From NCBI GenBank assembly GCA_016935355.1, contig JAFGRC010000018.1, positions 284 to 64,283 of the forward strand: 64,000 nucleotides of DNA, in the 5' to 3' direction. Under the pieces are notes generated by a model that was not told where the DNA came from, did not search any database, and saw nothing but the letters and a program-made list of their open reading frames with translations. Position numbers and translations under genes: made by a program. The DNA is from Bacteroidales bacterium. Its GTDB lineage: Bacteria > Bacteroidota > Bacteroidia > Bacteroidales > UBA10428. Of this stretch, positions 1,038 through 62,749 are shown piece after piece; the first letter of the stretch is position 1; each line of letters starts with the position of its first letter.

Positions 1038-1072
1038 AAATTGCAATCATTATCATTTTAAAAACAAAACAA

Positions 1073-2116: not shown

Positions 2117-2180
2117 TGGATGTGCAGATTTTATAGCCTTTTAATCTCAAATTTGTTTTATATTATTAAATTCTATCATT

Positions 2181-5100: not shown

Positions 5101-5306
5101 TACTCGGTATGATGCCTCTTGCGCTGAGTACCGGTGAAGGTTCTGAGATCTGGAGCCCGATGGGTATTTCGGTGATCGGAGGACTGGTGTTTTCTACTGT
5201 AGTGACCATGCTGATCGTTCCTGTGATTTACAGGGTATTTGCCCGCAGGGGGGAAAGGGATGAAAAAGCTCAGGTTCGCCGCAAGTTCGACTTTATGGAT
5301 AAATAA
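2181..5306 (+). CDS. RND efflux permease (AcrB/HAE1-like)
   Basis: 1041 aa with two large periplasmic loops and a 12-TM layout. TM4 motif is GMVVDDAIVVLEN and TM10 motif is GIAVKNAIVLVDY, which is the canonical Asp-Asp/Lys relay. The RLRPVLMT motif is present. Confidence 0.95.
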   Translation: MSIYANAVKKPITTLMIFLAVVVFGIYSLINLPIDLYPDIEFPAITVVTTYSGANASDIETNISVPIEDALNSVDKLQEITSISRDNISVVFAEFEYETDLDEAANEIRDGLSFIEEILPEGAGKPTIIKLNASMMPILFYAITAEESYEGIEKLLEEKIINPLNRIEGIGSIGLAGTPIRQVLIDVDPKRMEAYNVTIEQIGSVLQMENMNMPTGNIKMGMLNYPLRVEGEFNSSDEIRDIVIGNQSGQPIYLRDVATVKDSIREMSIDQRINGQRGITMYVMKQSGANTVKIAREINKELQELQNTLPSDISIEVILDSSEFISGSIRNLTETLMFALFFVMMVVFFFLGRWRATLIIVLTIPISLIVAFIYLYITDNTINIISLSSLSIAIGMVVDDAIVVLENISKHIERGSSPREAAIYATNEVWLAVIVTTLTVVAVFLPMTMIGGMTGVLFRQLGWIVSITVTTSTIAAITLTPMLSSKLLSLRPKNGYRTRISKYEQIVIPWLNELDSRYEKALRWSLHNKLLITVISFIIFFGSILLATGLNTSFIPESDDGYITVAAELQSGTRMEESARIARKIDSIAVALLPDELELLSSSAGSDESGGIMAIFQSSGSNIINHSISLTSAEDRDVTVWDIAERIRQELQKIPEIIKFNVTTGGGMSMSTTTLDVQIFGYDIEQTTLLADQIAEHLETIPGARDIEISREKSKPELRFDIDREKMAAMGLNTTTVAMALNNRINGLIATQYREGGDEYNVVVKFNESYRNSISDIENIAITNPLGNKIRLSEIGTIREYWSTPNIERQGRQRVVTVSTTPYKVSLGKLAADVQTEINKMDIPPEIIIEVGGAFEDLQESFTDLAMLLMLSLILVYLVMASQFESFRMPFIIMFSIPFAFTGVILALFITNTDLSVIAGLGAIMLVGIAVKNAIVLVDYINLMRDRGYDIDDAIALAGKSRLRPVLMTAMTTILGMMPLALSTGEGSEIWSPMGISVIGGLVFSTVVTMLIVPVIYRVFARRGERDEKAQVRRKFDFMDK

Positions 5307-40138: not shown

Positions 40139-41680
40139 TTATTTTATTGTTACCTGATAGTTGGCCTCTCGCTGAGCAGCAGTCTCAAACCAAACAGGTA
40201 TCACCTCCTCCAGGAACTTTTGTTTTTCCCGGTTCATCTGCTGCATGTCCAGCCTGATGTATTGCTGTGCTTTTTCTTTTGTATCGATATCAGGATATGG
40301 AACAGGTTCATTGTGTTCATGGCGGGCCATTAGCCGGACAAGTTCGATACGGGCTTCCTGAACAATTGTTATGGCAGATGAAATTACACGGCCGGTTTCC
40401 ACCGGTGAATGGAATGATGCTCCGTGGCCTGCGGCTGCATAATCCCAGCGCCATTGTGCGTGCCTTATGCCGGTCAATATATCCGACATTTGCTCCTCTG
40501 TCGCTCCCAGGTCCCACGCCTGTTTTGCTTCCACATGAGCACGCACCAGGAGTTCTTCCAGCTTATCCCTGTTTTCAATGATCTTATCCTGCCTCGAATA
40601 TACATCCCGGACAAGCTGACCGGATTCTTCACGGTGACAAACCTGGCAGGAGCTCGAAACATTGTTCAGGGGACTTTGCACATGATGGTCCGTGAATTTC
40701 TGTCCTCCCTCGCTGATATAAGGCATGTGACAATCGGCACAGGATACTCCCCTGGTGGCATGTGTTCCCGTAAGGTAAATCTCATATCCCGGATGCTGTG
40801 CTTTCAGCATGGGCGCCTTGCTGATCGCATGCGTCCAGTCTGAAAACCCGATCGCATCGTAATATGCTTCCATTTCTTCTGCCGTGAAGCCGCTGTCCCA
40901 CGGATGAACCAAATAATCAACACCTTCAATAACGTTCTTGTTAAAGTAATATTCCACATGACACTGGGCACAGACCAGTGAGCGCATTTCCTGGTGCGAT
41001 GAACGGTTCACATCAATTCCGATCCTGCTGAACGCTTCAATCAGTGCAGGTCGCGAAATACGAAGGTTCATGGTTTTCGCATCATGACAATCGGCGCAAC
41101 CTATGGCATTGACAATTTCACTCCCCTTCTCTTCCCATGTTCCGCTGTAAAAAGCCGCCACGCCAGCCGTGAAATCTCCCGTTTCCCTGATGTATTGATC
41201 CATCAGGCGGGGTACATCCGGACTTTTGCAGGTCCAGCATGTATTGGGCATGGGACTGACCGTTCCCTGGACGGGTGCTCCTGTCCTTAAAGTGTTCCAC
41301 AGGTCTTCCACAGCATAAAAATGGCCTCTTGCCTGGTTGTAGTCTTTCGAGAAACTGTATCCTGCCCACAAAACTGCCATACGGGGATCTGTTTCGAGCA
41401 TATCGATCATGGCAGAACCATTGTATTTACTTCTGAATGAAGTATCTGAAGTTTCCAGAAAGGACTGGTACTCACGCGGAAAATTGGTTCCCCAGATTTC
41501 GTTTCTGGGCTCAAAATTAGAATGTTCAGTTTGAGGAGTATAAGCGAAAACAGCTTCAGCTCTTCGTTCTATTATTGATGATGCCAGCAGTCCGAGCAAA
41601 AATACAACAACAATCGTAGCGCCAAACAGCAGCCAGCCCAGCCATGACTTTTGTTTTATCAATTCATTAATAGGCATCAT
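40139..41680 (-). CDS. nrfA: Ammonia-forming cytochrome c nitrite reductase, pentaheme catalytic subunit
   Basis: Active-site heme motif CxxCK (CWTCKS) plus four CxxCH motifs (CADCH, CAQCH, CADCH, CQVCH). An N-terminal membrane anchor is present. The start is chosen at MMPINEL (41680), 11 nt after the nrfH stop. Confidence 0.93.
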   Translation of the reverse strand: MMPINELIKQKSWLGWLLFGATIVVVFLLGLLASSIIERRAEAVFAYTPQTEHSNFEPRNEIWGTNFPREYQSFLETSDTSFRSKYNGSAMIDMLETDPRMAVLWAGYSFSKDYNQARGHFYAVEDLWNTLRTGAPVQGTVSPMPNTCWTCKSPDVPRLMDQYIRETGDFTAGVAAFYSGTWEEKGSEIVNAIGCADCHDAKTMNLRISRPALIEAFSRIGIDVNRSSHQEMRSLVCAQCHVEYYFNKNVIEGVDYLVHPWDSGFTAEEMEAYYDAIGFSDWTHAISKAPMLKAQHPGYEIYLTGTHATRGVSCADCHMPYISEGGQKFTDHHVQSPLNNVSSSCQVCHREESGQLVRDVYSRQDKIIENRDKLEELLVRAHVEAKQAWDLGATEEQMSDILTGIRHAQWRWDYAAAGHGASFHSPVETGRVISSAITIVQEARIELVRLMARHEHNEPVPYPDIDTKEKAQQYIRLDMQQMNREKQKFLEEVIPVWFETAAQREANYQVTIK

Positions 41681-41691
41681 CTTGATTTTTT

Positions 41692-42303
41692 TTAATCCTT
41701 TGTAATCAAAACCTTCAGCCATGCAGGGACAGGACTTTGCGGAACCGGGACACGTGCATTGGGAACACTGGCAAGACTGTTAACCGTACCGTGCGGTGTC
41801 TCCCTGTGACATTCCCAGCATTTTCTGTCGGTCTTTGCCAGGTTTTCATTTCCAGTCATGGCCAACAACCTGTCATCCTTTAACAATTCACCGTGACAAT
41901 AGATGCAGTTACGGTGCACCACCTTCTGTCCGGCTTCTTTAATAAATATTACCTGCGGTTCCTTCCGTAATGTAAAAATGGTGGCATGTCTCAGTCCATC
42001 CTTCGCCTTGAAATAATATTTACTGAAAACATTATCCTGAGGTACATGGCACTCATTGCAACTGGTCCATTCACGATGTGAACTGTGAAACCAGGTCGCA
42101 TACTGGGGGGCCATAATATGGCAGTTTACGCAAGTTTCCGGTTTGTCGCCGAGATACGAAGGTGCCTTTGATATATAAAATACATAAAGAATCAATCCTG
42201 CAAGGATGCCTGAAATGATAATAACCGGTATTTTCCATTTTTCCGGTGGACTCAGGAAACGGATAAGTCTTTTGAATGGTGAGATGATGACTGGATCTGC
42301 CAT
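41692..42303 (-). CDS. nrfH: Tetraheme NapC/NirT-family quinol dehydrogenase NrfH
   Basis: N-terminal TM helix and four CxxCH motifs (CVNCH, CNECH, CIYCH, CWECH). It lies immediately upstream of nrfA. Confidence 0.9.
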   Translation of the reverse strand: MADPVIISPFKRLIRFLSPPEKWKIPVIIISGILAGLILYVFYISKAPSYLGDKPETCVNCHIMAPQYATWFHSSHREWTSCNECHVPQDNVFSKYYFKAKDGLRHATIFTLRKEPQVIFIKEAGQKVVHRNCIYCHGELLKDDRLLAMTGNENLAKTDRKCWECHRETPHGTVNSLASVPNARVPVPQSPVPAWLKVLITKD

Positions 42304-42502: not shown

Positions 42503-43213
42503 TTAAGATTTCTTCAGAATGGCATCCATAACCTGATCTTTGCCAAGTTTCCTGGTGCAGAAGAACCAGTCATAACAAGTCAGATCGTTTTTACTTTCCA
42601 TGCGTTCCTTTGCAACACCACAGGATCCTGCAGTAGGAACGATCACATCGTCACCCGGACGCCAGTCGGCCGGCATGGCAACCGAAAATTTATCGGCTGC
42701 CTGCAGGGCAATCAATACCCTGTACAGTTCATCAAAATTCCTGCCCAGACTGAGCGGATAATAAAGAATGGTACGAATAACGCCTTTCGGATCAACATAA
42801 AATACCGCTCGCACAGCTTTGGTACTGCTTTCACCGGGTTGAATCATTCCGTATTTTTTGGCAACTTCCATTGTGATGTCTTCAATCAATGGAAATTTCA
42901 CCTCAACATCCTTCATTCCTTTATATTCGATCTTGTCCTTAATTGTTCGCAACCAGGCAATATGGCTGTAAAGTCCGTCGACCGAAAGACCAACCAGCTT
43001 GCAGTTGGCCTCGGCAAATTTGTCTTCCATGGTAGCGAATGTCATGAATTCCGAGGTGCAAACGGGCGTGAAATCAGCCGGATGACTGAATAGTATTACC
43101 CAGGAGCCTTTATAATCATCAGGGAAATTAATATCACCCTGAGTCGTGACAGCTTTGAATTCAGGTGCCGCCTCACCGATGCGTGGCATTGAAACTACTT
43201 GTTTTTCTTCCAT
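42503..43213 (-). CDS. Peroxiredoxin (Prx6-like / 1-Cys-type AhpC-TSA family)
   Basis: Peroxidatic Cys motif FTPVCTSEF, and the HIAW and RNFDE motifs typical of Prx6-type enzymes. Confidence 0.92.
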   Translation of the reverse strand: MEEKQVVSMPRIGEAAPEFKAVTTQGDINFPDDYKGSWVILFSHPADFTPVCTSEFMTFATMEDKFAEANCKLVGLSVDGLYSHIAWLRTIKDKIEYKGMKDVEVKFPLIEDITMEVAKKYGMIQPGESSTKAVRAVFYVDPKGVIRTILYYPLSLGRNFDELYRVLIALQAADKFSVAMPADWRPGDDVIVPTAGSCGVAKERMESKNDLTCYDWFFCTRKLGKDQVMDAILKKS

Positions 43214-43239: not shown

Positions 43240-43662
43240 TCATTCTTTGTCCAGGAATTTGCCCATGATCTGAAGCTTTATCTCTTCTATTCTGAAATCT
43301 GGTATGTCTTTCTTTTCAAAATAATCTCTGAGCAACTGATCGAGTTCTTCATCAAAATAATTTTCTATTCTTTCAGATTGGGCACTATACAGGTGGTGGT
43401 GGTTGTACAGTATCGCATCGTACCGCATAATATCCTTATCAGTTTTTACTTTCATGATCAATTTATTGTCAACCAGTTTTTCAAGTATTTTATATACGGT
43501 TCCTGTTGCAATATCCGGATGGTCCTTCCTGATATATTCTGCAATTCTTTCTGCAGTCGGATGGTCTTTGAGAATTGTAACAGCTTCGAGGACGGCTATC
43601 CGCTGTGGTGTGACTTTCAGTCCCCTGCCCTTTAGTTTGTTTCTGATCTCTGTAATATTCAC
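43240..43662 (-). CDS. Fur-family metalloregulator (PerR/Fur-like), GTG start
   Basis: LKVTPQRIAVLE winged-helix region and an HHH motif (LYNHHHLY). It starts at a GTG (forward cac, 43660-43662). The protein contains no cysteine. Confidence 0.85.
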   Translation of the reverse strand: MNITEIRNKLKGRGLKVTPQRIAVLEAVTILKDHPTAERIAEYIRKDHPDIATGTVYKILEKLVDNKLIMKVKTDKDIMRYDAILYNHHHLYSAQSERIENYFDEELDQLLRDYFEKKDIPDFRIEEIKLQIMGKFLDKE

Positions 43663-45309: not shown

Positions 45310-45772
45310 ATATCAAAGCACCGCACACCAACTTAAAATCCTGAAGCACAGGACTGCCGCTGCGGTTGAAATAATATGCTTTGATGCATGCATCAGCAAT
45401 TGCCATGAACGGATTTTCTGTGATGGTGAAATATGTGACCGCATCGGTTCCGGGTATTGTGAAATGATAGTCTCCGTGAAGATCAAGCGGTGAAAAATCC
45501 CCAAACTGAACCCATTCATCGGAAAATGACCAGTATCCGGTTTCATCCAGCTTGCCCCTGAACATCACGGTATTTTCGTCATTGAGTAGCAGAAAAGAAT
45601 CTGCTTCAGTTCTTACAACTGCCGTTTTATTGAAACCAGCCGCAAACCCGTTTTGCGGCACCAGCAAGGGTTCCCTGTCGTTCTCCGAATCACCGGTAAA
45701 AGAAGAAATTTGCGGTATGGAGATCAACCATATGATGAAGACCGGTGCATTTATGGCTGAGCTAATCCACAC
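45310..45772 (-). pseudogene. Probable 5' fragment of a GH9-type glycoside hydrolase (N-terminal Ig-like domain only)
   Basis: ORF 45227-45772 encodes ...VPQNGFAAGFNKTAVV...FGDFSPLDLHGDYHFTIPG...YFTI...ACIKAYYFNRSG. This matches the pattern of the CelD_N Ig-like domain that precedes GH9 catalytic domains. No catalytic domain follows. The ORF runs antisense into the DUF1080 gene 3' end and overlaps the SMP-30 gene stop. Confidence 0.4.
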
Positions 45773-46661
45773 CTTTCACTTTCATCCGAAGCGTATAGAC
45801 CGATGTTCTTGCGGTGATGAACAATGTACTGCGTTCCTTTCCCCCGAAACATACATTGGCTGGAAATTCCGGAACAGAAATATCACCAATTTTTTCACCG
45901 GTTTTATTGTATACAGCAACCGTCCGTGCCGTTAAATAAACATTGCCCTCATGGTCAATGGTCATGCCGTCGGATCCGCTCGGAGCGAATGATGTTTTGT
46001 TGGTTAAGGTACCGTCCGGGTTGATGTCATATTTCCAGATAGTTCTGCTTCCCTGATCCGCAACATAGAGTGTTTTGCCGTCAGGCGTGCCGATAATCCC
46101 GTTTGGCTGCTTATAATCGTCAATCACACGGACCAGCCCGCCGGAGGGTGCTAGATAATATACACCACGTGTATCCTGAAGCTCCTCATGTCCTTCTTCC
46201 CAGTAATCCCGCCTGAAAAAAGGATCCGTAAAATATATACCTCCTTTGTTGTCCGGCCAAAGGTCGTTTGGCCCGTTCAGGTGTTTGCCGTCGTACCCTT
46301 CGCTGTATACATCGATCATCTTACCCCCGGGAGTGAACTTCACAAGTTTGTTGAACTGATCGGCACACGCCAGCAGATTGCCCTCACGGTCAAAATAGGT
46401 TCCGTTAGAGCGTTCACATGCTTCAACAAAAATACTTGTTCCGGAATCTTCATCCCAGATGAAAATCTTATCATTCGGCTGATCAGTAAAATATACACGG
46501 CCGTCAGGTGCGCATGCCGGTCCCTCGGTAAAGGCAAAACCCGAATCGGCCTTAATAACAGTTGCTCCGTCCGCAACAATGGATGAAGGCAGTGTATCAT
46601 CCTGGGCAAAGACAATAATGCAAAAATAAAGCAGTATAAGCGTTAAGATCTGGTGCTTCAT
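45762..46661 (-). CDS. SMP-30/gluconolactonase/LRE-family beta-propeller protein (secreted)
   Basis: Signal peptide. The FTEGPA, NGPNDL and PNGI motifs are typical of the SGL family. Confidence 0.88.
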   Translation of the reverse strand: MKHQILTLILLYFCIIVFAQDDTLPSSIVADGATVIKADSGFAFTEGPACAPDGRVYFTDQPNDKIFIWDEDSGTSIFVEACERSNGTYFDREGNLLACADQFNKLVKFTPGGKMIDVYSEGYDGKHLNGPNDLWPDNKGGIYFTDPFFRRDYWEEGHEELQDTRGVYYLAPSGGLVRVIDDYKQPNGIIGTPDGKTLYVADQGSRTIWKYDINPDGTLTNKTSFAPSGSDGMTIDHEGNVYLTARTVAVYNKTGEKIGDISVPEFPANVCFGGKERSTLFITARTSVYTLRMKVKGVD

Positions 46662-46864: not shown

Positions 46865-47587
46865 TCAAATGAATTTTTCGCGTTTCTGCAGGTTAAAAAG
46901 TCCGTAAACCAGACTTACCACAATACCGATCGACAGAAAGATCCGGTTATCACTTACCGTTCCGGCCCATATAAGCTCGTTGGTATTCGAAGGCATAGCA
47001 AAGGGATTCAAAAAGATATTCCACTTTGATTCGGCAAGCTGATCAGTCAATATGAAGATGAACAGGCCGATCAGGACCATAACCACGGCTGTTCCGTTTC
47101 CGTTCTTGATGATTGTGGAAAACATAAAAGAAAGACTTCCGATAAAGAGAATCGGATACATAATCTGATAGGTCATTTCCAGCTTGTTAATGGGTATGAG
47201 CAAAACCGATAACAGCCAGGAATAAATCAGAAGCAGCACGAATACCACGACAAAAACCATGATCAACCGGGCAAACCATACCTTGTAGCGGTAATCGGGA
47301 ATCCCGAACAGGATCTCAATGACACCTGCATCATCATCACTCTGGATCCCGAATACCGTTGGATAAAATATCAGCAATATTCCCGGTAACAAGAGAATGT
47401 TGTATATATTATCTTCCGTAATGATTTCACTTTCCAGCACGTTTTGAACGGAAAAAAAGATCATCAGCACAAGGGAAGCCAGTAAAAACCAGATGAATTT
47501 ATTGGCAAAAATGATGCCGACATTGTAACGTGCCAGTTTCGCAGCCAAAATTGCGTTATTTTTTAATTTTGATTTTGTACTCATCAT
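46865..47587 (-). CDS. ABC-2-type transporter permease (about six hydrophobic segments)
   Basis: 240 aa polytopic membrane protein. Its N-terminal region (LARYNVGIIFANKFIWFLLASLVLMIF) parallels the N-terminus of the 1152-aa permease (IARYERKTLFRSWFFRIFSSLSMLVLF). It starts 28 nt after the fused NBD gene. Confidence 0.7.
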   Translation of the reverse strand: MMSTKSKLKNNAILAAKLARYNVGIIFANKFIWFLLASLVLMIFFSVQNVLESEIITEDNIYNILLLPGILLIFYPTVFGIQSDDDAGVIEILFGIPDYRYKVWFARLIMVFVVVFVLLLIYSWLLSVLLIPINKLEMTYQIMYPILFIGSLSFMFSTIIKNGNGTAVVMVLIGLFIFILTDQLAESKWNIFLNPFAMPSNTNELIWAGTVSDNRIFLSIGIVVSLVYGLFNLQKREKFI

Positions 47588-47615: not shown

Positions 47616-50600
47616 TCAGGCAATATCCTTAAGCAGGCATAAATAGGCATCTTCCAGCAACGGATGCGCCTGCTGGGCATCCGGATGGGGTTTTTCCACG
47701 GAAATGCAGCGAACCTTGATCTTACTTCCTTCACGCATATGATGCACTATAAGCTGTTTGTTGGCAAAATCATCGAATTCCTTTACCGTCATACTAAAGG
47801 TCCATACAAATTTTTCACCAAGCTTCGCCATCCCTTTTGGTGTGCCTGTATACTTCAACACACCTTTGTTCAGCACTGCAACATTATTACAGGAACTTGA
47901 AATGTCCTCAATAATGTGCGTCGAGAATATTACGATCCTTTCGCGGCTCAGCTCTACCAGAAGGTTTCTGAACCGGATCCGTTCCCTTGGATCCAGTCCC
48001 GCTGTTGGTTCATCCACAACCAGAATGCGCGGGAGGTTCAGCAATATCTGTGCAATACCGATACGCTGCTTCATACCCCCGGAATAGGAACCGATTTTAT
48101 CGTCTTTCTTGTCATGCATATGAACCGACTTCAGCACGTAATCGATGCGGGCTTCCCGGGTTGACTTGTCCGTTATCCCCTTCAGTATGGACTGATAATC
48201 GAGATAATCCCATGCTGTCATGTTTTCATATGTCCCGAATGCCTGAGGCAGATAACCCATTAATCCCTGCAATTCTTCACGGTATTTCTGGGTATCAAGT
48301 CCGTTGATAAAAATCTTACCATAGCTCTGTTCGTAAATACCGCAAATGATCCGCATCAGGGTAGTCTTACCCGCCCCGTTGGGACCCAACAATCCGAACA
48401 TACCCGTCCCGATCATCATTGAGGCACCGTTAAGCGCCCTGAAAGGGACCTTCTGTTTACCGATGACGGGTATTTGCTTGATCATCCGTAAAAATCTGCG
48501 ACGCAGGATGCCAAAACGTCCTGTGATCCTTTCAATATTCACATTCTTTTCATACAGATATCTGGATGTTGTATAGATGATCAGACAGCATAGCCAGATC
48601 ACACCGACAAATATTACAACTCCCAGAGTATCCCAGCGTTTTGAAAAGATGTACAGGAATACAAGCGGGGTGCCCCACATGAGTATGTTTGTAATGATTT
48701 TGCTGATCCTGAGATAAACCTGATTGTCCTGCTCCCCGGCACGATTTGCCAGAACCGTCTTAAAGGGTTTCCATATTGCAAACTGGAGGAAATAAATGGC
48801 ATGGCATAAAACAAACATCCAGAAATTGCTATCGATAAAGATGAAAATAAAATATGCAATAAATCCGGTCAACGGAATCTGCCACATGAGATCATAAAAA
48901 TCACGCAGTTTGTCATATTTTTTCTCCAGGCCTGCACGCTTCCTGACCTGGATACCACCTTTCCACTCCCTTGTGAACCTGGAATCGCGATCATATACCT
49001 TTACAATTTTCCTGATGTTAATATTAATGGGATCGGTGTCTCCGATCAGTTTTGTACTGGCACGCCGCAGACTGGTCATGAGGAAATAAGTGACACCCGG
49101 TATCAGGATCAGCAAAAGGATAAAGTCGGCCAGCTGCCAGATAAAGGTATCCACTTTAAAATAAATGAACAGAATGCCGATAACAAAAATTACCGCGTGG
49201 ATCGTTTTAATTTTCCAGTTCAGTGATTTCATCCACTTCAGTGCATTCTCCAGACCAAAATACATGGTGGGAATGAAAATAAGGGTCAGCAGTGTACTGA
49301 CCGCCAGTCCACCAATGACGGTTATTGCAAAAGGTGCACCGATGATGGAAACATATCCCCCCTGTCCCATGGCAAGCGGAAACATTGCAACGATGGTGGT
49401 TATTGCAGTAATTAAAATGGGACGGACACGGGAAATCCCTGCAGTGATTAATGCCCTGGAATGACCGTAACCACGTTTGCGCAGAATGTTCGTATAATCG
49501 ATCAGGATGATGCCGTTGTTTACCACAACACCCAGCAGAATTAAAAATCCCGTAATGGTATTGGCATTGAGTATGCTGTTATTGGTAAAGATCAGGGCCA
49601 GAAATGAACCAATGGCCGCCATGGGTATTGAAAACAATATCACGAACGGAGTCATGAGCGATTCGAAAACAGAAGCCAGTATCATAAAGATAAAAACCAG
49701 TGCAGCGATGATCAGAACATAGTATTCGCTGAACAAATCCTCTTCGTGAATAACTTCAATGGCTACACCGGCAGGAAGGTTATAAGCTGCCACGATCTGG
49801 TCGATCTCGAGACGGTAAGCTTCGAGTATATCATTCGATTCCTCGGCCTCTTCTTCAAAGCGGTAAGTCACTTCAATCTGTTTTTCCTGGTTTTCCCGGG
49901 TTATATTTGACATTCCTTCCGCATAATAAATGTCGGCCAGATCCTGAAGCATATAGTAGCCCGTATTGTCGTTACCGATTTGCAGGGTCTGCAATTCAAA
50001 AAGGGTCTTTTCATCCTCTTCATCTTCATCTTCATCCGCATCCTTTTCCTTGATCGTGATGTCATATTCCTCATCACCCTGCTTAAATGTCACACCTGCT
50101 GTAAATTCGCTTGAAAAAGAATTCAGTTCACTGGAAATATCATTTAAGGCCAGCCCGTATTCCGTAAGCAATAGCTGATTGAATTCCATGTGCACTTCCG
50201 GCCGGTTTGTTGATACCGTGGTGCTGACACTCCTGATTGATTCCAGGTCCTCCAGATAATACTCCAGATCTTCGGCAACTCCCTGCATCACATCAAAATC
50301 CTCACCCTTGATAACGATCCGCTCCTGGTTCGTTCCGATTCCCACGAAACTGCTGAAATTGCTGCTCATGCCGCTTCCCCCTATGGCAGTCATTGCACTT
50401 CCGCCCCCTGAAGATGATTCCGTAAGGCTTATTCCCCCGCTTCCGATCCTTCTTCCAAGTTCTTCTTCAACAGCAGACTTGATTTCAGCCATATTGCGTC
50501 TGGCAATATCCTGGTAATCTTCCTTTAACGCCACGGTTACCGTAGCTTCTTCTTCCTCGACCCTGGTAACGATTTCTTTCTTTTCCTCGAGATCTTCCAG

Positions 50601-52340
50601 TCTGGATTCCACTTCGCGTACGATGGCATCGGTTGATTCCAGCGTTGCTCCCGTCGGCATGCTAATATAAACATCAAATTGTTCTTCTTCCACTTCAGAC
50701 AAATTGCTCACACTAAGGGCAAGAACAACCAGTATGGTGATAAAAAATACAACAAGTGCACCGATAATTGTACCTGCAGGATTTCTGAGACTTTGTTTCA
50801 GCAGAAGTACATAAATCTGAATGACCCGGTTATTGGTGGTGACTTTTTCATAGAAAATATTATGCGCTTTCCTTCTTCTCAGAAGAAGATGGCTTCCCAT
50901 TGGAATCAGCAAAAGTGCTACGAACAAAGACATGCTTATCGTGGAAATCACGGAAACACCGACATTATTTCCTATGAGCCTTACATTATCATCGGAGGCA
51001 AAAATAAAAGGGAGAAATACAGTAATGGTTGTAAGGGTTGCTGCAAGAATGGACCTCCATACTTCCTTAGCGCCCTGCGTAACAGCTTTTTCCGGATCAA
51101 ACCCGTTTCCGGATAACCTGTAGATATTTTCCATTACCACAATACTGTTGTCCAGCAACATTCCAATTGCCATCGCCATACCGATCAATGTAAAACTGTT
51201 AATGCTTATTCCGAGGGCATAAAAGAAATTGAAAGCAGAAAATATGGAAACCGGAATGGCCAGCGCAACAAAAATGACAAGCCGCAGGTTCTTCAGGAAT
51301 ACCCACAGGATAAAAACCGCAAGCAATCCTCCGAAAAGGGCCAGTTGAATAATCTGATTGATATTGGTCTCCATGGTCTCCGCCGAATTCGACTGAACCA
51401 CTATTTCAACGTCTCTGGATTTAAGCTTCTGGTTGAGGACTTCAATCTGCTCCAAAGTACGGTGCGAAAGGTCAATCAAATTGGACTGCGTGTCGCTGAT
51501 CAATGTGGCGGACACAGCATCCAGTCCGTTTACACGACTGTAGGAAGTGACTTCCTTTACGCCAAAGTATACATCGGCGACATCTTTAAGCAGTATAGGA
51601 CCTTCCTTCAGGACAATGTTTTCGATATCACCAACGCTTCCGTATTCGGCAGTCACGTGGACGAAATATCTTTTATCAGGTTCATGGACATGGCCCGTAA
51701 AAGTCCGGCTTTGGGCATATTGTCCGATTGCAGAACTGATTTGGGCAGGCGTGATGTTATATGCTTCACAGGCACCCATATCGAGAATTACCTCGACTGA
51801 TTTTTCCTGTCCACCGTAGACATTCACAGCTGCAATTCCGTCAATGTTCTCCAGCTGGTTCACAATTTCTTCATCGACAATGTTGCGGATGCGGTCGGTT
51901 CCGCCGGAGCCTCTGATCTGCAATTCCATGAAATCACTGGTCGTTTGCAGGGTATTAGCCTGTACAACCTGGACTGTGAAATTTTCATCAAGGTTCTGCC
52001 TGATCTGATTGATCCTTTCCTCAAGTTTAAGATATGCCAGCTGGGTATTGATATCACTTTTGAAACTTACGGTTACAGTGGCCTGACGGTTGGTGATCTG
52101 GGATGAAATGTTTTCCACACCATCGAGGGTTCCTATTGCACCTTCAACTGGAATAACCGCTTGATTTTCAAGATAATTAGGCTCGACTTCCATTCTGGAG
52201 CTGATCTGGACGAAAAGCGTCTGCAGTTCCAAAGAGGGCATTAACTCGACTGACAGTTGTCTATAGGATATGTATCCGAGAACGGACAGGCCAATAAACA
52301 ACATGCTTATAAAAATCTTTCTATGTAAAATGAATTTCAT
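47616..52340 (-). CDS. Fusion protein: complete RND (AcrB-like) permease + ~260-aa multi-TM linker + ABC transporter ATP-binding domain
   Basis: Single uninterrupted 1574-aa ORF.
- aa 1-~1035 form a full 12-TM RND layout (TM4 GMLLDNSIVVMEN, TM10 GVVVNNGIILIDY, RVRPILIT).
- aa ~1040-1297 contain about six further hydrophobic segments.
- aa ~1298-1574 form a complete NBD: Walker A GPNGAGKT (nt 48363-48386), signature SGGMKQR, Walker B ILVVDEP, and H-loop STH. Confidence 0.85.
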   Translation of the reverse strand: MKFILHRKIFISMLFIGLSVLGYISYRQLSVELMPSLELQTLFVQISSRMEVEPNYLENQAVIPVEGAIGTLDGVENISSQITNRQATVTVSFKSDINTQLAYLKLEERINQIRQNLDENFTVQVVQANTLQTTSDFMELQIRGSGGTDRIRNIVDEEIVNQLENIDGIAAVNVYGGQEKSVEVILDMGACEAYNITPAQISSAIGQYAQSRTFTGHVHEPDKRYFVHVTAEYGSVGDIENIVLKEGPILLKDVADVYFGVKEVTSYSRVNGLDAVSATLISDTQSNLIDLSHRTLEQIEVLNQKLKSRDVEIVVQSNSAETMETNINQIIQLALFGGLLAVFILWVFLKNLRLVIFVALAIPVSIFSAFNFFYALGISINSFTLIGMAMAIGMLLDNSIVVMENIYRLSGNGFDPEKAVTQGAKEVWRSILAATLTTITVFLPFIFASDDNVRLIGNNVGVSVISTISMSLFVALLLIPMGSHLLLRRRKAHNIFYEKVTTNNRVIQIYVLLLKQSLRNPAGTIIGALVVFFITILVVLALSVSNLSEVEEEQFDVYISMPTGATLESTDAIVREVESRLEDLEEKKEIVTRVEEEEATVTVALKEDYQDIARRNMAEIKSAVEEELGRRIGSGGISLTESSSGGGSAMTAIGGSGMSSNFSSFVGIGTNQERIVIKGEDFDVMQGVAEDLEYYLEDLESIRSVSTTVSTNRPEVHMEFNQLLLTEYGLALNDISSELNSFSSEFTAGVTFKQGDEEYDITIKEKDADEDEDEEDEKTLFELQTLQIGNDNTGYYMLQDLADIYYAEGMSNITRENQEKQIEVTYRFEEEAEESNDILEAYRLEIDQIVAAYNLPAGVAIEVIHEEDLFSEYYVLIIAALVFIFMILASVFESLMTPFVILFSIPMAAIGSFLALIFTNNSILNANTITGFLILLGVVVNNGIILIDYTNILRKRGYGHSRALITAGISRVRPILITAITTIVAMFPLAMGQGGYVSIIGAPFAITVIGGLAVSTLLTLIFIPTMYFGLENALKWMKSLNWKIKTIHAVIFVIGILFIYFKVDTFIWQLADFILLLILIPGVTYFLMTSLRRASTKLIGDTDPININIRKIVKVYDRDSRFTREWKGGIQVRKRAGLEKKYDKLRDFYDLMWQIPLTGFIAYFIFIFIDSNFWMFVLCHAIYFLQFAIWKPFKTVLANRAGEQDNQVYLRISKIITNILMWGTPLVFLYIFSKRWDTLGVVIFVGVIWLCCLIIYTTSRYLYEKNVNIERITGRFGILRRRFLRMIKQIPVIGKQKVPFRALNGASMMIGTGMFGLLGPNGAGKTTLMRIICGIYEQSYGKIFINGLDTQKYREELQGLMGYLPQAFGTYENMTAWDYLDYQSILKGITDKSTREARIDYVLKSVHMHDKKDDKIGSYSGGMKQRIGIAQILLNLPRILVVDEPTAGLDPRERIRFRNLLVELSRERIVIFSTHIIEDISSSCNNVAVLNKGVLKYTGTPKGMAKLGEKFVWTFSMTVKEFDDFANKQLIVHHMREGSKIKVRCISVEKPHPDAQQAHPLLEDAYLCLLKDIA

Positions 52341-58104: not shown

Positions 58105-61100
58105 TTATAGCTTAACCAGTTTGATCGCATCGGCATATACAATTCTTTGTTCTGATTTATTGGACAGCTGGATCACTGCACCATCACCCGATGAAAACTG
58201 ATATGAGCCCAGTAAAACCCAGCCATTATTAGATGCACCTACATTAAGAATTTGTTCTTCCTCTCCTTCATCGTGAAAGATGTTAAAATAATAGTAATAA
58301 TCACGTTGACGTCCCAAATCACCGCGTCCACCAAAATCACCGCCAACCGGAGGGCCGCCTCCCGTAAAACCTCCCCTCATCACCATGGGTGAATTGTATA
58401 CATAATAATATACATCATAGTAACCCGGTTCATCAATGGGAACGGTCCATGTGGCCTTTTGATTGCCGTCTCCCGATTTGATATAGTATGCCGATCTGAC
58501 GATATGCCCGTAAAAATCCGAGCTTGTTGTTGCAGTCCAGCTTGCAGGCGGGCGAAACTGATTCACTCCGGAATATTTTTCTGCCGATTCATCCTCCTTA
58601 ATGAGCCATTTCCGGAGCAGACTGGTATTGGTCAATGTGCTGATCTGAAAACCAGGATCTTCATTATCAACAATTATTTCACCCGGCAGTACCAGGTTCA
58701 CAGGAGTTTCAGATATTCTTTCCCCTTCATATGCTGTTATCTTTGTGTTTTCAACAATATTTGAAAAAGGATTTGACAAAGTCTGGGGTATGTTTTCCGA
58801 TGTCAGGGTATTGATATCGGCCATTCTGGGTTCGCTGGGTAACAGAAAACTGAATTCCTTTGTCTGGTTGGCTTCCAGGTATAATATCTCATCTACCTGT
58901 TCATCAACATTTGAACTCCCGCCAAAACCTCCGGATCCTCTTCCTCCTCCCGACATTCCGCCACCAAAGCTCCCGGGCATACCACCACTGGTGCTCAGTC
59001 TGAATGACAATAAAATGACACCGTCAACATCTGACAGGTTCGACACCTTCAGGCTGACCATCGTTTTTAACTGATCTCCTGTCTTGACTTTCACCGCATT
59101 CAATGAGGAAATCAGATATTTGGGCAATTCCCTTTGATTGAACCAGTTTTCAACGAACTGGCCGAGCTCAATGCCAAAATGTTCCTGTGTTTTATTTTCG
59201 AATTCTTCGAATGACAAATTTTTAAATCTGTTTTCAACCAATACGGCTTTTAGAAAATCTCCAAGCACTTCTTCACTGGTCTGAGATTGAAGCATTACGA
59301 AAAATACCTGACTTTTGAGTGAAATCAGATCCGGAATGATATCCTTGCTGTTCAGATCCGTCAGGATTTCAACAAATGACTTATCCTGTAAAGCAATGTT
59401 TGCATCTTCCTCACCGCTTGATCCCGTAATATTCCTCATAAAGGAAGACCGCATATCGGTTCCCACACTGCTTCTTAAATAGTATTCGAAAATACGATTC
59501 ATAACAGGCCATTTGTCGGACCTGATATCATTCTGAAAGTTATATAATTGAGGGAAAAGATAATAGGGACTGGTTTCTGCTGTGCTTGTAATTTGTCCTG
59601 CCCCTGCAATCCTGATCATCATATCAGGGCGCTGCTGTGCATCCGTGAAATTTGCCATGAAATTATTCACGACCCTGAGCTGATAATCCCTGTCTGTCAG
59701 GCTTTCATCTCGGTTTCTGCCCTGCCGCTGTTGTCTTTTGATCATGAACCTGAAATCAGCGTCTGACAGCTGGTATGCTTTTTCAGGCATGTATACCTGC
59801 TCTGGTTGCACGTATTCCGAATAAGACCTCCAGATTCTGTCAAATGATTTGAACTGTGCCGGAACCTCCACAACGGAAATGCGGTTAAAGGCATAAGTAA
59901 GATCAAACTCGCGTTCAAGGTCATTCAGCTTGCCGGCAATTAAATTGGGAACCGTATCATTGATATCGGTCAGGACGTCTGAAAAATAATCGTGGCCTTT
60001 AAAATGCCATAAAGAAAACCTGATGTTGTCGGCTTCAAATGATTTTTCCTCATAATTTCCAATGGTGAGACTGATTTGTGTCAGGGATTGTTCAGGCCTG
60101 AACAGGAAGTTGCCTGAACCCTCCTGAGTGCTTACTCCCTGTGATATCGCGACAAGCGATTCACCGGTTGTTACATGAAGCGTATAATCCGTATAATTTC
60201 TCTTATCCCATCCCACATGTTCGGTCGAATAGCTCACTCCCGGTACCGGATACCAGTTTGCCTCCGGTGTCAGCAATACATAATTGGGTGTGACAAAAGC
60301 ATACCGCTTGTCGGCATTCATCAGAAGGTCGCCAAACATTTCTTCACGCTCCTCCCTGTCGATATCCAGATAACAGGCTGCTTCATTAACCTTGCCTGAA
60401 TAATCCAAACTGAGGCGTATTTCTTCACCCGGTTCAATTGCGGGATCAAGTCCGATGATCAGCAGATGATGTTTTCTTTCAAACTGCCTTTCCTGACCCT
60501 CAATGGTTATGCTGTTTGCCTGCAATCCCGGATTGAGGTGCAAAATGATTTCACCGAGGTCATTTGCGGAATTATTTTGCAGCAACATTTCTGATTCGAC
60601 CTCGAGCTGTTCACCGGTATGACTTAATTGAAGATCGTGTTGAATGACTTCCGGAGTGTATTCCCTGAAATACTGGTTGTTCAGTTCAACCATTTCCTTT
60701 CTCAGCCTTTCATCACCTTTAAAATTACTGATGTATTTGTATCCCAGGAAAAAACCTGCAATAATAAAAAGAATGCTGCCAATCAGGCTTATCAGGGTCA
60801 TGGATTCCGATTGTGGCAGACGTTTTAATATATACATGGTCATGAACACACATCCGACTCCCAGACTGAAGTATATTCCCCGGTGAAGCAGGATTTCCGG
60901 AAGATTTCCGAATCCGGTTACCTGAGACTGCAATAAGGGAATCTTAAATGCCATATAATCAAATAAATAATAGAATTTTTCCTGAAGCAGAAACAGGGTT
61001 ATCCCGATGTAACCCAGGATCAGAACAAAGGTAACGGCCTGATTCTGAATAACGCTCATGATCAAAAAGGACAATCCGATGATAAAAACCAGTGTTGGTA

Positions 61101-61563
61101 TGCTGATCAGCAACAGGTAAAGGGCATAAGATACCCAGTTCACTGCCGCCCCGGGAGCAAGAAGGTTAAAAACAAGTGCCATACCCAGAATCAGTATGTT
61201 CAGAAGCAGGAACACCTCAATATTTCCCCAGGTTTTACCGACCACATATTCCGCGTTGGTCATCGGACGCATATAAATGACTTCTGTAGTATCCAGTTTT
61301 TTATCCCTTTTCAGAAAGTCAGAGGCAAGAAATACCGCAATGATAGCCTGTGCAACGTTCAGGATCAGCAGGTTGAAATATGGAATTGTCGAGGGTATTG
61401 CACTGAAAACCCAGCGTGACATGCCTGCTTCTGACAGAAGAGCAAAGTTTACAATAAACAGCACCAGCATGGAAAGACTGCTGAAAATACGAAAGAACCA
61501 GCTCCGGAATAAGGTCTTCCTTTCGTATCTGGCAATTGATAATATATTATGCAAAGAGATCAT
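58105..61563 (-). CDS. ABC-2-type permease fused to an M1-aminopeptidase-like ectodomain (no HExxH) and a golvesin-like C-terminal domain
   Basis: 1152 aa.
- aa 1-~280 are polytopic and ABC-2-like.
- aa ~300-820 resemble the permease/M1-aminopeptidase fusion architecture (LHLNPGL...IRLSLDYSGKV, ...RISVVEVP...), but the protein contains no His-Glu dipeptide, so no HExxH motif.
- aa ~965-1152 match the golvesin-type pattern (GNQKATWTVPIDEPGYYDVYYY...NNGWVLLGSYQFSSGDGAVIQLSN...ADAIKLV). Confidence 0.7.
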   Translation of the reverse strand: MISLHNILSIARYERKTLFRSWFFRIFSSLSMLVLFIVNFALLSEAGMSRWVFSAIPSTIPYFNLLILNVAQAIIAVFLASDFLKRDKKLDTTEVIYMRPMTNAEYVVGKTWGNIEVFLLLNILILGMALVFNLLAPGAAVNWVSYALYLLLISIPTLVFIIGLSFLIMSVIQNQAVTFVLILGYIGITLFLLQEKFYYLFDYMAFKIPLLQSQVTGFGNLPEILLHRGIYFSLGVGCVFMTMYILKRLPQSESMTLISLIGSILFIIAGFFLGYKYISNFKGDERLRKEMVELNNQYFREYTPEVIQHDLQLSHTGEQLEVESEMLLQNNSANDLGEIILHLNPGLQANSITIEGQERQFERKHHLLIIGLDPAIEPGEEIRLSLDYSGKVNEAACYLDIDREEREEMFGDLLMNADKRYAFVTPNYVLLTPEANWYPVPGVSYSTEHVGWDKRNYTDYTLHVTTGESLVAISQGVSTQEGSGNFLFRPEQSLTQISLTIGNYEEKSFEADNIRFSLWHFKGHDYFSDVLTDINDTVPNLIAGKLNDLEREFDLTYAFNRISVVEVPAQFKSFDRIWRSYSEYVQPEQVYMPEKAYQLSDADFRFMIKRQQRQGRNRDESLTDRDYQLRVVNNFMANFTDAQQRPDMMIRIAGAGQITSTAETSPYYLFPQLYNFQNDIRSDKWPVMNRIFEYYLRSSVGTDMRSSFMRNITGSSGEEDANIALQDKSFVEILTDLNSKDIIPDLISLKSQVFFVMLQSQTSEEVLGDFLKAVLVENRFKNLSFEEFENKTQEHFGIELGQFVENWFNQRELPKYLISSLNAVKVKTGDQLKTMVSLKVSNLSDVDGVILLSFRLSTSGGMPGSFGGGMSGGGRGSGGFGGSSNVDEQVDEILYLEANQTKEFSFLLPSEPRMADINTLTSENIPQTLSNPFSNIVENTKITAYEGERISETPVNLVLPGEIIVDNEDPGFQISTLTNTSLLRKWLIKEDESAEKYSGVNQFRPPASWTATTSSDFYGHIVRSAYYIKSGDGNQKATWTVPIDEPGYYDVYYYVYNSPMVMRGGFTGGGPPVGGDFGGRGDLGRQRDYYYYFNIFHDEGEEEQILNVGASNNGWVLLGSYQFSSGDGAVIQLSNKSEQRIVYADAIKLVKL

Positions 61564-61575
61564 ATCAATAGAATT

Positions 61576-62481
61576 TTATTTAAAATCATCACTGTCCGTC
61601 CATTCACCAAGTTTTGCCTCCATAAAATACACATATGCATGTTCCAGGTTGGGATCAATATTGATCCCTGAATATCCGTTAATACTGTCGGCAACGACCT
61701 GTATCTCCCAGCCGTCCACTTCAGGGATGGTTGAAATAACGGGATATTTTTCGCTGATTTCCCGATATTCGTTTTCGGTTGCATTAATAAGCCATACCCG
61801 ACCCCTGGCTTCCTTTACCAGATCATCAGGGGACCCGTTAAAGGCCACGGATCCTTTGTCAAGCAAGGCCATATTTTCGCATGTACTGGAGATATCGCCC
61901 ACAATATGTGTGGAAAGAATGATAATGACATTTTTGGTGCTGATCGTGGATAGCAGGTTGCGGAACCTGATCCGCTCTTCCGGATCCAGTCCGGTAGTAG
62001 GCTCATCCACAATGATCAACCTCGGATCATTGATCAGGGCCTGAGCTATTCCCAGCCGTCTTTTCATACCACCCGACAGTTTGTTGGCCTGACGGTCGCG
62101 TGCTTCAAAAAGCCCGACTTCCTCCAGCATTTTCTCAACCGCAGACCTTCTTTTGGAGGCATCTTTCATTCCGGACAGACGGGCAGCATAATCCAGGAAT
62201 TCATAAGTTTTCAGCTTGGAAAAAAAGCGAAAATCCTGAGGTAAATAACCCAGCATCTTTCTGATCTCTTTCCTGTTTTTCCTGAGATCATATCCATCTA
62301 TGGTGACCCTGCCACTTGTAGGTCTCATCAGTGTCACCAGAATGCGCATCAGGGTCGATTTGCCGGCACCGTTCGGTCCCAGTAATCCGAACATGCCGTT
62401 CGGAATGGTCAGGTTGATATCCTTTAACGCCTTGTTGCCATTCCGGTATGTTTTATCCAGATTTTCAATGATAATTTCCAC
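61576..62481 (-). CDS. ABC transporter ATP-binding protein (stand-alone), GTG start
   Basis: Walker A GPNGAGKST, signature LSGGMKRR, Walker B LIIVDEPT, and H-loop STH. It starts at a GTG (forward cac, 62479-62481). It is a close paralog of the NBD fused to the RND gene. Confidence 0.93.
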   Translation of the reverse strand: MEIIIENLDKTYRNGNKALKDINLTIPNGMFGLLGPNGAGKSTLMRILVTLMRPTSGRVTIDGYDLRKNRKEIRKMLGYLPQDFRFFSKLKTYEFLDYAARLSGMKDASKRRSAVEKMLEEVGLFEARDRQANKLSGGMKRRLGIAQALINDPRLIIVDEPTTGLDPEERIRFRNLLSTISTKNVIIILSTHIVGDISSTCENMALLDKGSVAFNGSPDDLVKEARGRVWLINATENEYREISEKYPVISTIPEVDGWEIQVVADSINGYSGINIDPNLEHAYVYFMEAKLGEWTDSDDFK

Positions 62482-62710: not shown

Positions 62711-62749
62711 AAAAAGATAAGGTGCCTCAACGTGAGACACCTTTATCTT
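62711..62749 (-). terminator. Imperfect hairpin terminator after the Gfo/Idh/MocA gene
   Basis: The stem is aagataaggtg / cacctttatctt with one bulge. On the minus strand it is followed by a T-run, seen as forward aaaaa at 62711-62715. It separates the oxidoreductase gene from the ABC/RND operon. Confidence 0.5.

Follow-up and report, generated by a model that had tools for sequence, protein, structure and literature searches.

A conserved RND–ABC fusion protein of Bacteroidales and its place in a putative composite efflux system

Textbooks present resistance-nodulation-division (RND) permeases as proton-driven secondary transporters and ATP-binding cassette (ABC) transporters as primary ones driven by ATP, and in reviews of tripartite efflux the inner-membrane engine is taken to be one or the other. 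In this study, a gene that joins both engines in a single polypeptide was analyzed. It is located in a 64,000-nucleotide stretch of the genome of a Bacteroidales bacterium (assembly GCA_016935355.1, contig JAFGRC010000018.1, positions 284 to 64,283), referred to as the window, and was first noticed in a preliminary description made from the sequence of the window. The gene is the sixth of seven on the same strand, with 12–38 nt between genes; the others encode a free ABC ATPase, a 1152-residue membrane protein, a TolC-like outer membrane factor (OMF), an RND-type periplasmic adaptor (MFP), an unfused RND permease (RND-1) and a 240-residue membrane protein (TMD240). A literature search for RND–ABC hybrids or ATP-driven RND hybrids found no description of one, and a comprehensive review (PMC8277102) mentions none. 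The fusion unites the two major efflux engines in a genuine hybrid that is as yet uncharacterised, and its conserved set of partners suggests concrete mechanisms open to testing.

Several described systems share parts of this organization. The locus resembles MdtABC–TolC of Escherichia coli in having two adjoining RND paralogs and a single MFP, and a mixed RND trimer is plausible here too; MdtBC is cited as a rare HAE-1 heterotrimer (PMC8277102). However, MdtB has the canonical DD/K proton relay and no ATPase, whereas both RND proteins of the present cassette, which are 29% identical to each other, lack the residues equivalent to D408 and K940 of AcrB, and one of them carries six additional transmembrane (TM) helices and a nucleotide-binding domain (NBD). 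AcrAB–TolC and MexAB–OprM share with the locus the full-length ACR_tran fold, an RND-type MFP, a TolC-like OMF and the arrangement in one operon, but the fusion differs from their permeases in its incomplete relay triad, in having 18 rather than 12 predicted TM helices, in its fused NBD and in its low scores against the RND families. MacAB–TolC (type VII) is likewise an ATP-powered tripartite efflux system with an MFP and TolC, and provides a precedent for ATP-driven mechanotransmission to periplasmic domains (PMC8277102); however, in MacB an NBD of another class at the N-terminus is combined with four TM helices and a periplasmic domain. No match to FtsX or MacB_PCD domains was found in any of the seven operon proteins using Pfam and NCBIfam. 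The NBD of YbhF from E. coli is of the DrrA/ABC-2 class. The YbhGFSR system is similar in combining two NBDs with two non-identical 6-TM permeases and an MFP (PMC7190983), but the NBDs of YbhF are fused to each other and not to an RND protein, and the system contains neither an RND component nor a permease with a large ectodomain. Among type V ABC systems (NosDFY, PmtCD, ABCA, ABCG and Wzm–Wzt) are the nearest relatives of the fused NBD (ABCA and NosF) and of the TMD240 model (the transmembrane domains, TMDs, of PmtCD, NosY and ABCG), and a C-terminal domain of regulatory type is shared; however, none of these has TM helices between strands β1 and β2 of the NBD and none is fused to an RND protein.

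The open reading frame (ORF) of 1574 residues joins a complete RND permease to a complete ABC ATPase, as originally proposed; its coordinates proved exact, and Pfam matches ACR_tran at residues 2–1028 (E = 1.7e-164; profile positions 3–1018 of 1021) and ABC_tran at residues 1314–1447 (E = 3.5e-27). The open frame extends over 4.7 kb in DNA with a GC content of 45%, far above chance expectation, and the base composition is uniform across the fusion junction. In the genomes of more than 55 species, cultured Parabacteroides and Marinifilum among them, the orthologous fusion forms one collinear frame without interruption. At every locus with enough contig, this frame measures 1544–1648 residues from stop to stop and aligns to residues 1–1570 of the window protein, and the linker is nearly free of insertions and deletions in the 57 species that were compared. 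A missed stop codon, which had already been considered unlikely, and an assembly chimera are both ruled out by the collinear frame in these species and by metagenome loci that reach the fusion. The RND–ABC fusion is confirmed to be genuine.

A few database entries do resemble separate RND and NBD pieces, as would be expected if a missed stop, a frameshift or a chimeric assembly had joined two genes or if the gene were a pseudogene. However, the two candidate stand-alone linker–NBD genes proved to be frameshift fragments, each with an overlapping upstream ACR_tran ORF: P0006 (931 residues) derives from a gene cut into overlapping ORFs of 652 and 931 residues at a locus (L001) where RND-1 is split too, and P0194 (539 residues) from a 2x-coverage contig (L071) with an overlapping 517-residue ACR_tran ORF. 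Such an artefact is considered to have negligible probability: in more than 100 independent assemblies, with isolate genomes among them, the frame is unbroken and the linker nearly free of indels. Orthologs that always encode the modules separately were named at the outset as a finding that would speak against a fusion; the opposite is seen, with the modules never separate where the assembly is clean, and the split cases examined are frameshift fragments. At one locus in the draft assembly of Geofilum rubicundum JCM 15548 (L066, 10468–11301) a frameshift lies within the NBD, reflecting either a sequencing error or a true pseudogene.

The TM helices of the fusion were assigned from hydropathy together with an AlphaFold2 (AF2) model of residues 1029–1574, which had a mean pLDDT of 81.5. 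Of the 12 TM segments implied by the full-length match to ACR_tran, the hydropathy scan picks up 11. After TM12 of the RND module, the predicted order is a pair of helices (TM13–14), a β-strand (residues 1107–1118), a short cytoplasmic helix, a four-helix block (TM15–18), a basic helix, the rest of the NBD and a β-rich C-terminal domain, giving six extra TM helices and 18 predicted TM helices in total. The segment containing the strand, with the sequence ININIRKIVKVYD at residues 1105–1117, can be assigned from the model and the alignments as the canonical NBD strand β1 with its A-loop aromatic residue; none of the 57 species deviates at I1107, V1113, K1114 or Y1116, and the strand aligns with β1 of the free paralog and with that of a second, short-linker class of fusions. 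In a contiguous ABC NBD, the A-loop aromatic residue is usually found approximately 25 residues before Walker A. In the fusion, Tyr1116 precedes Walker A by 203 residues because of the predicted four-TM insertion, and the contiguous N-terminal β-subdomain expected of an ABC NBD was not found. According to the model and the alignments, the fused NBD appears to be split by a membrane insertion between β1 and β2, whereas only five residues separate these elements in the free paralogous ATPase of the window.

This anatomy alters two points of the preliminary description. The NBD had been taken to start near residue 1298, but β1 and the A-loop are located at residues 1105–1117, some 200 residues upstream of Walker A. 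Furthermore, about 260 residues of additional membrane sequence had been described as the joint between the two modules; there are six extra predicted TM helices in all, but the RND-to-NBD connector spans only about 75 residues with two of these helices, and the other four lie inside the NBD. The two linker classes differ in the same region. Long-linker fusions have a four-TM block of 150–170 residues between the β1 and β2 elements; short-linker fusions (1389–1458 residues) have neither TM13–14 nor the four-TM block, and in these the strand LxIxIxNLxKIY is followed after 25–45 residues by the β2 element ALxGVxL..G..GLLGPNGAGKT. A PDB search found no solved relative of the 6-TM linker. The mean identity to the window residue across the 57 species is 0.72 for the NBD, 0.52 for the RND module and 0.30 for TM15–18, so that conservation within the fusion is highest in the NBD and lowest in TM15–18.

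The Walker A, signature, Walker B and H-loop motifs that had been noted in the fused NBD were all found. Walker A occupies residues 1319–1327 (GPNGAGKT, with K1325), the Q-loop residues 1363–1366 (YLPQ), the signature residues 1419–1426 (YSGGMKQR) and Walker B residues 1439–1450 (VVDEPTAGLD, with E1444); the H-loop reads STH (H1475) and a D-loop is present. All of these motifs are invariant in the 57 species, and the fused NBD is, judging by its motifs, catalytically intact. The closest NCBIfam models for both the fused and the free NBD are DrrA and GldA, with the fused NBD scoring below their equivalog cut-offs. The closest PDB sequences to the fused NBD are the NBDs of ABCA4, ABCA3, ABCA1 and ABCA7, TM0544 and NosF, and a Foldseek search with its AF2 model returned TM_1403, ABCA and NosF. 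Sequence and model comparisons agree that the fused NBD is a member of the type V (ABC-2) lineage, specifically of the DrrA/ABCA class. NBDs of this lineage work with 6-TM ABC-2 permeases. The free ATPase is 40% identical to the fused NBD over 272 residues, including the C-terminal domain and the terminal P-x-LE-x-AY motif, which identifies it by sequence as a paralog of the fused NBD; all five catalytic motifs are present in 68 of its 68 orthologs. A neighbour-joining tree without support values separates the fused NBDs of the short- and long-linker classes, as a single clade, from the free NBDs, which is consistent with a single ancient fusion.

In AcrB, the residues D407, D408 and K940 constitute the proton-relay triad, with which R971 and T978 are associated (Chem Rev review, PMC8277102). 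The best PDB sequence match of the fusion RND module is MdtB, and in the alignment of the two the fusion reads DN in TM4 where MdtB reads DD, and has Asn in place of the TM10 Lys. The relay positions of the fusion are D397–N398 (TM4), N941 (TM10), R973 (TM11) and A979. Across the 57 species, the fusion and RND-1 have the same residues at four of the AcrB positions, namely Asp at D407, Asn at D408, Asn at K940 and Arg at R971; at T978 the fusion has Ala (in 55 of the 57) and RND-1 has Ser or Thr. The full AcrB relay set (D407, D408 and K940 with R971 and T978) was thus found in neither protein, and the relay of RND-1 in the window is likewise noncanonical, with D–N in TM4 and N–N in TM10. The D–N/S pair and Asn recur in short- and long-linker fusions from diverse organisms, and a regular-expression census found D–N/S plus N in 224 of 224 cassette RNDs. 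As an internal control, the conventional RND permease of the window (2181–5306) has the canonical motifs VDDAIVV and VKNAI, that is, DD/K. A relay loss peculiar to the fusion is ruled out, as it is common to RND-1.

The RND module of the fusion scores at best 430 bits against the NCBIfam cut-off of 1250 for RND_permease_1/2, 294 against 940 for TIGR00915 (HAE1) and 285 against 701 for TIGR00914 (HME). Because these scores are far under the cut-offs, the module is classified from its sequence as a divergent RND subfamily outside the curated subfamilies. A low-complexity stretch rich in Gly and Ser and an acidic run, DADEDEDEEDEK, occur in the porter domain of the module at residues ~633–665 and 765–778 (window positions 50000–50450, minus strand). 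By eye, in the pairwise alignment, RND-1 has no similar Gly/Ser-rich or acidic stretch at the matching positions.

The coordinates of the operon, of the segments of the fusion and of the conventional pump are listed in Table 1. The MFP surpasses the cut-off of NCBIfam RND_mfp (TIGR01730) with 202.7 bits against 94.9 (E = 7e-60). At the 3' end of the operon, a gap of 203 nt follows TMD240, and beyond it lies a gene of the SMP-30/gluconolactonase family on the same strand (45762–46661, minus). A scan that covers sigma-70 promoters only gave 47 sites against 36.5 ± 6.3 from shuffled sequences; Bacteroidota promoters differ from the sigma-70 consensus.

Table 1. Positions of the operon genes, of the segments of the fusion protein and of further features of the window
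Feature	Positions in window	Strand	Evidence or remark
Gene 1, free ABC ATPase, 301 aa, GTG start	61576..62481	-	ABC_tran, E = 6e-35
Gene 2, 1152-aa membrane protein	58105..61563	-	
Gene 3, TolC-like OMF, 499 aa	56582..58081	-	Pfam OEP, E = 2e-44; synteny
Gene 4, RND-type periplasmic adaptor (MFP), 351 aa	55507..56562	-	HlyD_D23, E = 6e-23; synteny
Gene 5, RND-1, unfused RND permease paralog, 1030 aa	52376..55468	-	ACR_tran, E = 2e-216
Gene 6, RND–ABC fusion, whole ORF, 1574 aa + stop, ATG start	47616..52340	-	
Fusion, complete 12-TM RND module, aa 1–1028	49257..52340	-	Pfam, alignment to MdtB, residue census
Fusion, predicted TM13–14, two extra helices joining RND TM12 to NBD, aa ~1042–1095	49056..49217	-	Hydropathy, AF2
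Fusion, putative NBD strand β1 with A-loop Tyr1116, aa 1105–1118	48987..49028	-	AF2 strand, conservation, alignments
Fusion, predicted TM15–18, four-TM block, aa ~1151–1264	48549..48890	-	Between NBD β1 and β2
Fusion, NBD core (Walker A, Q-loop, signature, Walker B, D-loop, H-loop), aa 1296–1500	47841..48455	-	
Fusion, C-terminal β-rich domain, aa 1501–1574	47619..47840	-	AF2, pairwise alignment; ends in PLLEDAY motif common to free ATPase
Gene 7, TMD240, 240 aa, 6-TM	46865..47587	-	Probable ABC-2 (type V) permease partner
Terminator-like hairpin, 11-bp stem	62719..62743	-	After upstream GFO/IDH gene; 5' operon boundary
Conventional tripartite RND pump	27-5306	+	OEP 27-1037, MFP 1073-2116, RND 2181-5306

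Two further membrane proteins accompany the RND proteins and the NBDs. The 1152-residue protein has approximately seven predicted N-terminal TM helices, followed by a large M1-aminopeptidase-like domain and a Golvesin_C domain. Its Pfam matches are to ABC2_membrane_2 (E = 3e-4; 20.5 bits, below the cut-off of 27.2), to the tail of Peptidase_M1 (E = 0.015) and to Golvesin_C (E = 3e-15), and a homolog from a high-GC locus (L159) passes the ABC2_membrane_2 cut-off with 27.9 bits over profile positions 1–277 of 283. A motif search found neither HExxH nor GxMEN in the protein. An active M1 peptidase was rejected, given the absence of these motifs and the weakness of its matches, which were limited to ERAP1 and glutamyl aminopeptidase, and the M1-like domain is probably non-catalytic by sequence. 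The ectodomain formed by the M1-like and Golvesin_C domains is the sole hint to the substrate and is not yet interpretable. Gly-rich low-complexity runs near residues 858–880 and 1063–1080 flank the Golvesin_C-like domain (58105–58900, minus strand).

TMD240 belongs to a family with 4691 matches, all of which are labelled 'hypothetical protein' and none of which has a Pfam domain; several components of the system are currently annotated merely in this way or as a generic RND or ABC subunit. An AF2 model of TMD240 from a shallow alignment (pLDDT 71) shows an N-terminal amphipathic helix and six TM helices, and its top Foldseek matches are nearly all TMDs of type V ABC transporters (PmtCD, NosY, ABCG2, ABCG5/G8 and ABCG25, with probabilities of 0.9–1.0). 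The most conserved stretch of the family is the predicted cytoplasmic TM2–TM3 loop, in which type V permeases carry their coupling helix; by eye, this loop resembles those of the ABC-2 permeases encoded at loci L075 and L158. The proteins found in the position of TMD240 at other loci point in the same direction: the 252-residue equivalent at L159 is matched by hhalign with a probability of 95%, and the 243-residue equivalent at L158, which passes the ABC2_membrane_2 cut-off, is matched at E = 1e-4. The small TMD at L157 also passes this cut-off. A BLASTP comparison of TMD240 with the N-terminal domain of the 1152-residue protein gave an insignificant result. Taken from model and sequence, TMD240 is a probable ABC-2 (type V) permease partner.

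Searches with the linker and NBD only (residues 1029–1574) found many relatives with 53–69% identity, many of which also contain ACR_tran, and a scan of one genome per GTDB species yielded 65 related loci. The hosts include Parabacteroides goldsteinii, P. segnis, five Marinifilum, Ancylomarina, Perlabentimonas, Roseimarinus, Marinilabilia, Geofilum and many Bacteroidales metagenome-assembled genomes (MAGs), and the closest locus is from a Zodletone-spring Bacteroidales MAG with approximately 90% identity. In an exhaustive HMMER search of 1.84 billion representatives, full-length fusions made up approximately 40 clusters at 50% identity, extending down to 32% identity. A separate homology search gave a single informative label, Acidobacteria, for one fragment with both domains. 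The gene order OMF > MFP > RND-1 > fusion > TMD240 is seen in essentially all genome loci; a single MFP accompanies the neighbouring RND-1 and fusion genes in every locus, and TMD240 lies directly downstream of the fusion in 58 loci. The C-terminus of the 1152-residue homolog lies just upstream of the OMF in 41 of the 41 genome loci with enough upstream DNA. In all 80 metagenome loci anchored on the 1152-residue protein, many of them from human-gut samples, the contigs show, up to their ends, the order free NBD > large protein > OMF > MFP > RND-1 > fusion, and the free NBD (69–79% identity) is upstream of the 1152-residue gene wherever the contig extends. At two loci, L008 (13304–16342, Tenuifilaceae MAG) and L020 (13049–16087, Rikenellaceae MAG), an ORF of approximately 1013 residues lies about 0.5 kb downstream of TMD240 and has an NBD-like match with 26–28% identity to the fused NBD.

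More distant loci rearrange the same elements. The short-linker loci L075/L076 and L157 have the order MFP > free NBD > small ABC-2 TMD > RND > ~900-residue protein > RND–NBD > OMF, and the 902-residue protein of L075 is homologous to the 1152-residue family (hhalign, 97.7%, E = 2e-12). Homology to this family was not significant for the 921-residue protein of L074 (617–3382), directly upstream of a short-linker fusion, unlike the L075 equivalent; it shows only a faint ABC-2 TMD signal. L160 has the order RND > 872-residue Peptidase_M1 protein > RND–NBD, and the high-GC long-linker locus L159 has the order free NBD > 1123-residue protein > MFP > RND > fusion > 252-residue protein. Apart from some exceptions, the fusion always occurs together with RND-1, the MFP, a free NBD, a small 6-TM protein such as TMD240 and the large ABC-2 protein, and usually also with an OMF; the exceptions are L158, where only the fusion and a small ABC-2 TMD were found, and L073, where the fusion stands alone.

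These observations suggest that the fusion is the centrepiece of a composite exporter spanning the envelope, an RND/MFP/OMF pump with two RND paralogs to which a type V ABC module is joined covalently; taken whole, this reading has roughly even chances of being correct. That the seven proteins form one such exporter, with the ABC module tethered to a mixed RND trimer, is probable; one machine rather than two neighbouring operons is favoured because ABC-2 genes lie interspersed among the RND genes and because the linker classes differ in which NBD adjoins which TMD. The problem of symmetry raised in the preliminary description, that RND pumps are trimers and ABC NBDs are dimers, is real. An MdtB2C-like heterotrimer was put forward there as a solution and is plausible, with two RND paralogs always beside one MFP and one OMF, but the free paralogous NBD and the two ABC-2-type membrane proteins of the operon were missed. 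Because the operon encodes this free ATPase, the fused NBD need not pair with a second fused NBD; a single fusion protomer together with the free NBD would likewise bring the number of NBDs to two. RND-1 and the fusion would form a mixed trimer, as in MdtB/MdtC, which would dock to the MFP and OMF. The fused NBD would dimerise with a second NBD, for which the free paralog would be the most economical partner here, giving (RND-1)2(fusion)1, and the NBD pair would sit on two ABC-2 membrane subunits, TMD240 and the 1152-residue protein. A heteromeric ABC-2 transporter would thereby be tethered covalently to the RND trimer. ATP hydrolysis may move an amphipathic substrate from the cytoplasm or the inner leaflet to the periplasmic face, from which the attached RND/MFP/OMF conduit would expel it across the outer membrane. 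The pairing of the fused NBD with the free paralog on the two ABC-2 proteins as the TMD pair, with one fusion protomer per trimer, is proposed tentatively, its chances being a little short of even. For ATP driving the first step, to the periplasmic face, with the RND/MFP/OMF conduit completing export, the chances for and against are evenly balanced. As both RND proteins lack two of the three triad residues of AcrB, the RND step itself may be driven or gated mechanically by the NBD via TM13–18, or may use a reduced proton pathway of Asp and Arg, the kind of residue pair through which SecDF couples to protons. It is doubtful that ATP also drives or gates the RND cycle, and similarly doubtful, if marginally less so, that the NBD dimer powers this cycle or is obligatory for it, with its motions transmitted via TM13–18 into an RND trimer without the canonical relay.

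Several observations weigh against parts of this proposal. The stoichiometry, the NBD pairing and the NBD–TMD contacts are deduced from gene content, and an NBD heterodimer is not universal because L073 and L158 have no free NBD nearby. TMD240 has no match in Pfam or NCBIfam, a lax scan of 40 family members reaching only E ~0.5 for ABC2_membrane_3/5; its Foldseek matches are weak (E = 0.03–0.5, TM-score ~0.5, from a model with pLDDT 71), and its hhalign comparison with the bona fide 267-residue ABC-2 TMD of L075 was not significant. As to the relay, the background for the DD/K contrast is one conventional RND, D397 and R973 (AcrB D407 and R971) are invariant, and RND-1 has an Asp right after the K940 position in 49 of the 57 species, though not in the window. 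In a rival reading built on the arrangement originally proposed, (fusion)2(RND-1)1, the fused NBDs would homodimerise on a TMD240 homodimer, and the free NBD and the 1152-residue protein would be a separate homodimeric ABC-2 transporter sharing the operon and perhaps the MFP and OMF. In the window, each NBD gene is followed directly by one ABC-2-type gene, the classic order of NBD–TMD pairs; at L158 and L073 the fused NBD apparently works without a nearby free NBD; and both NBDs are fully canonical, neither having the degenerate site that is common in obligate heterodimers. However, short-linker operons swap the adjacency, placing the free NBD beside the small TMD and the large protein beside the fusion, and have ABC-2 genes interleaved between the MFP and RND genes, which is easier to reconcile with one transporter. 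A homodimer of fused NBDs with two fusion protomers is considered somewhat unlikely, and the arrangement with two separate transporters unlikely.

An ATP-energised RND pump would dispense with the proton-motive force (PMF) altogether: the NBD dimer would drive the RND cycle through TM13–18, and the ABC-2-type proteins would be accessory stators or substrate feeders. D408 and K940 are missing from every NBD-associated RND that was examined, in both classes and both paralogs, and T978 is missing from the fusion as well. Constraint is stronger on the NBD than on the RND module. The strand β1 and its A-loop, flanked by TM helices on both sides, would provide a plausible mechanical link from the nucleotide state to the membrane. 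In addition, short-linker fusions have no extra TM helices, L073 has no adjoining ABC-2 gene and the fusions of the P0177/P0391 type (L072 and L160) have none downstream; the NBD of such fusions thus has locally only the RND module to act on. However, an ATP-energised RND is without precedent, the invariant Asp and Arg together with the frequent TM10 Asp of RND-1 make a reduced proton pathway possible, and the TM2–TM3 cytoplasmic loop of TMD240 is very conserved, as expected of a real NBD-coupled ABC permease. This mechanism is distinctly improbable. A purely regulatory or tethering role, in which the NBD would be an ATP-sensing or gating domain or would co-localise two independent, uncoupled transporters, would agree with the C-terminal domain of the fused NBD, a domain of regulatory type that TM_1403, NosF and ABCA NBDs also have, and with gene fusion being a common route to fixed stoichiometry or co-localisation. 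However, the catalytic Glu, H-loop, Q-loop and signature are fully invariant down to 32% identity, which argues for hydrolysis-coupled work, and tethering alone leaves both the conserved TM insertion within the NBD and the systematic change of the relay unexplained; such a role is very unlikely.

If it acts as a machine, the conserved fusion would show that both engines can be built into one, and it would offer a natural system in which to ask how substrates pass from the cytoplasmic membrane to an RND pump. It also raises the testable possibility of an ATP-coupled RND cycle. If the RND pump is powered by the NBD, no earlier RND pump would have been primary-active or energised by both ATP and the PMF, and a class of tripartite efflux machine that had gone unrecognised would exist in Bacteroidales of gut and sediment and, given the fragment labelled Acidobacteria, in one or more further phyla. 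Proof that ATP is coupled to the RND cycle would make the system categorically new. The open questions are directly testable because the family is present in cultured, genetically approachable organisms, such as human-gut Parabacteroides and marine Marinifilum.

Other genes of the window were noted in the course of the analysis. A few kilobases downstream of the operon, on the minus strand, a gene for a Fur-family regulator (43240–43662) is followed by one for an AhpC/1-Cys peroxiredoxin (42503–43213). Also on the minus strand is an nrfHA-like pair (40139–42303), in which the gene for a NapC/NirT-type cytochrome (41692–42303) overlaps that for a cytochrome c552 nitrite reductase (40139–41722).

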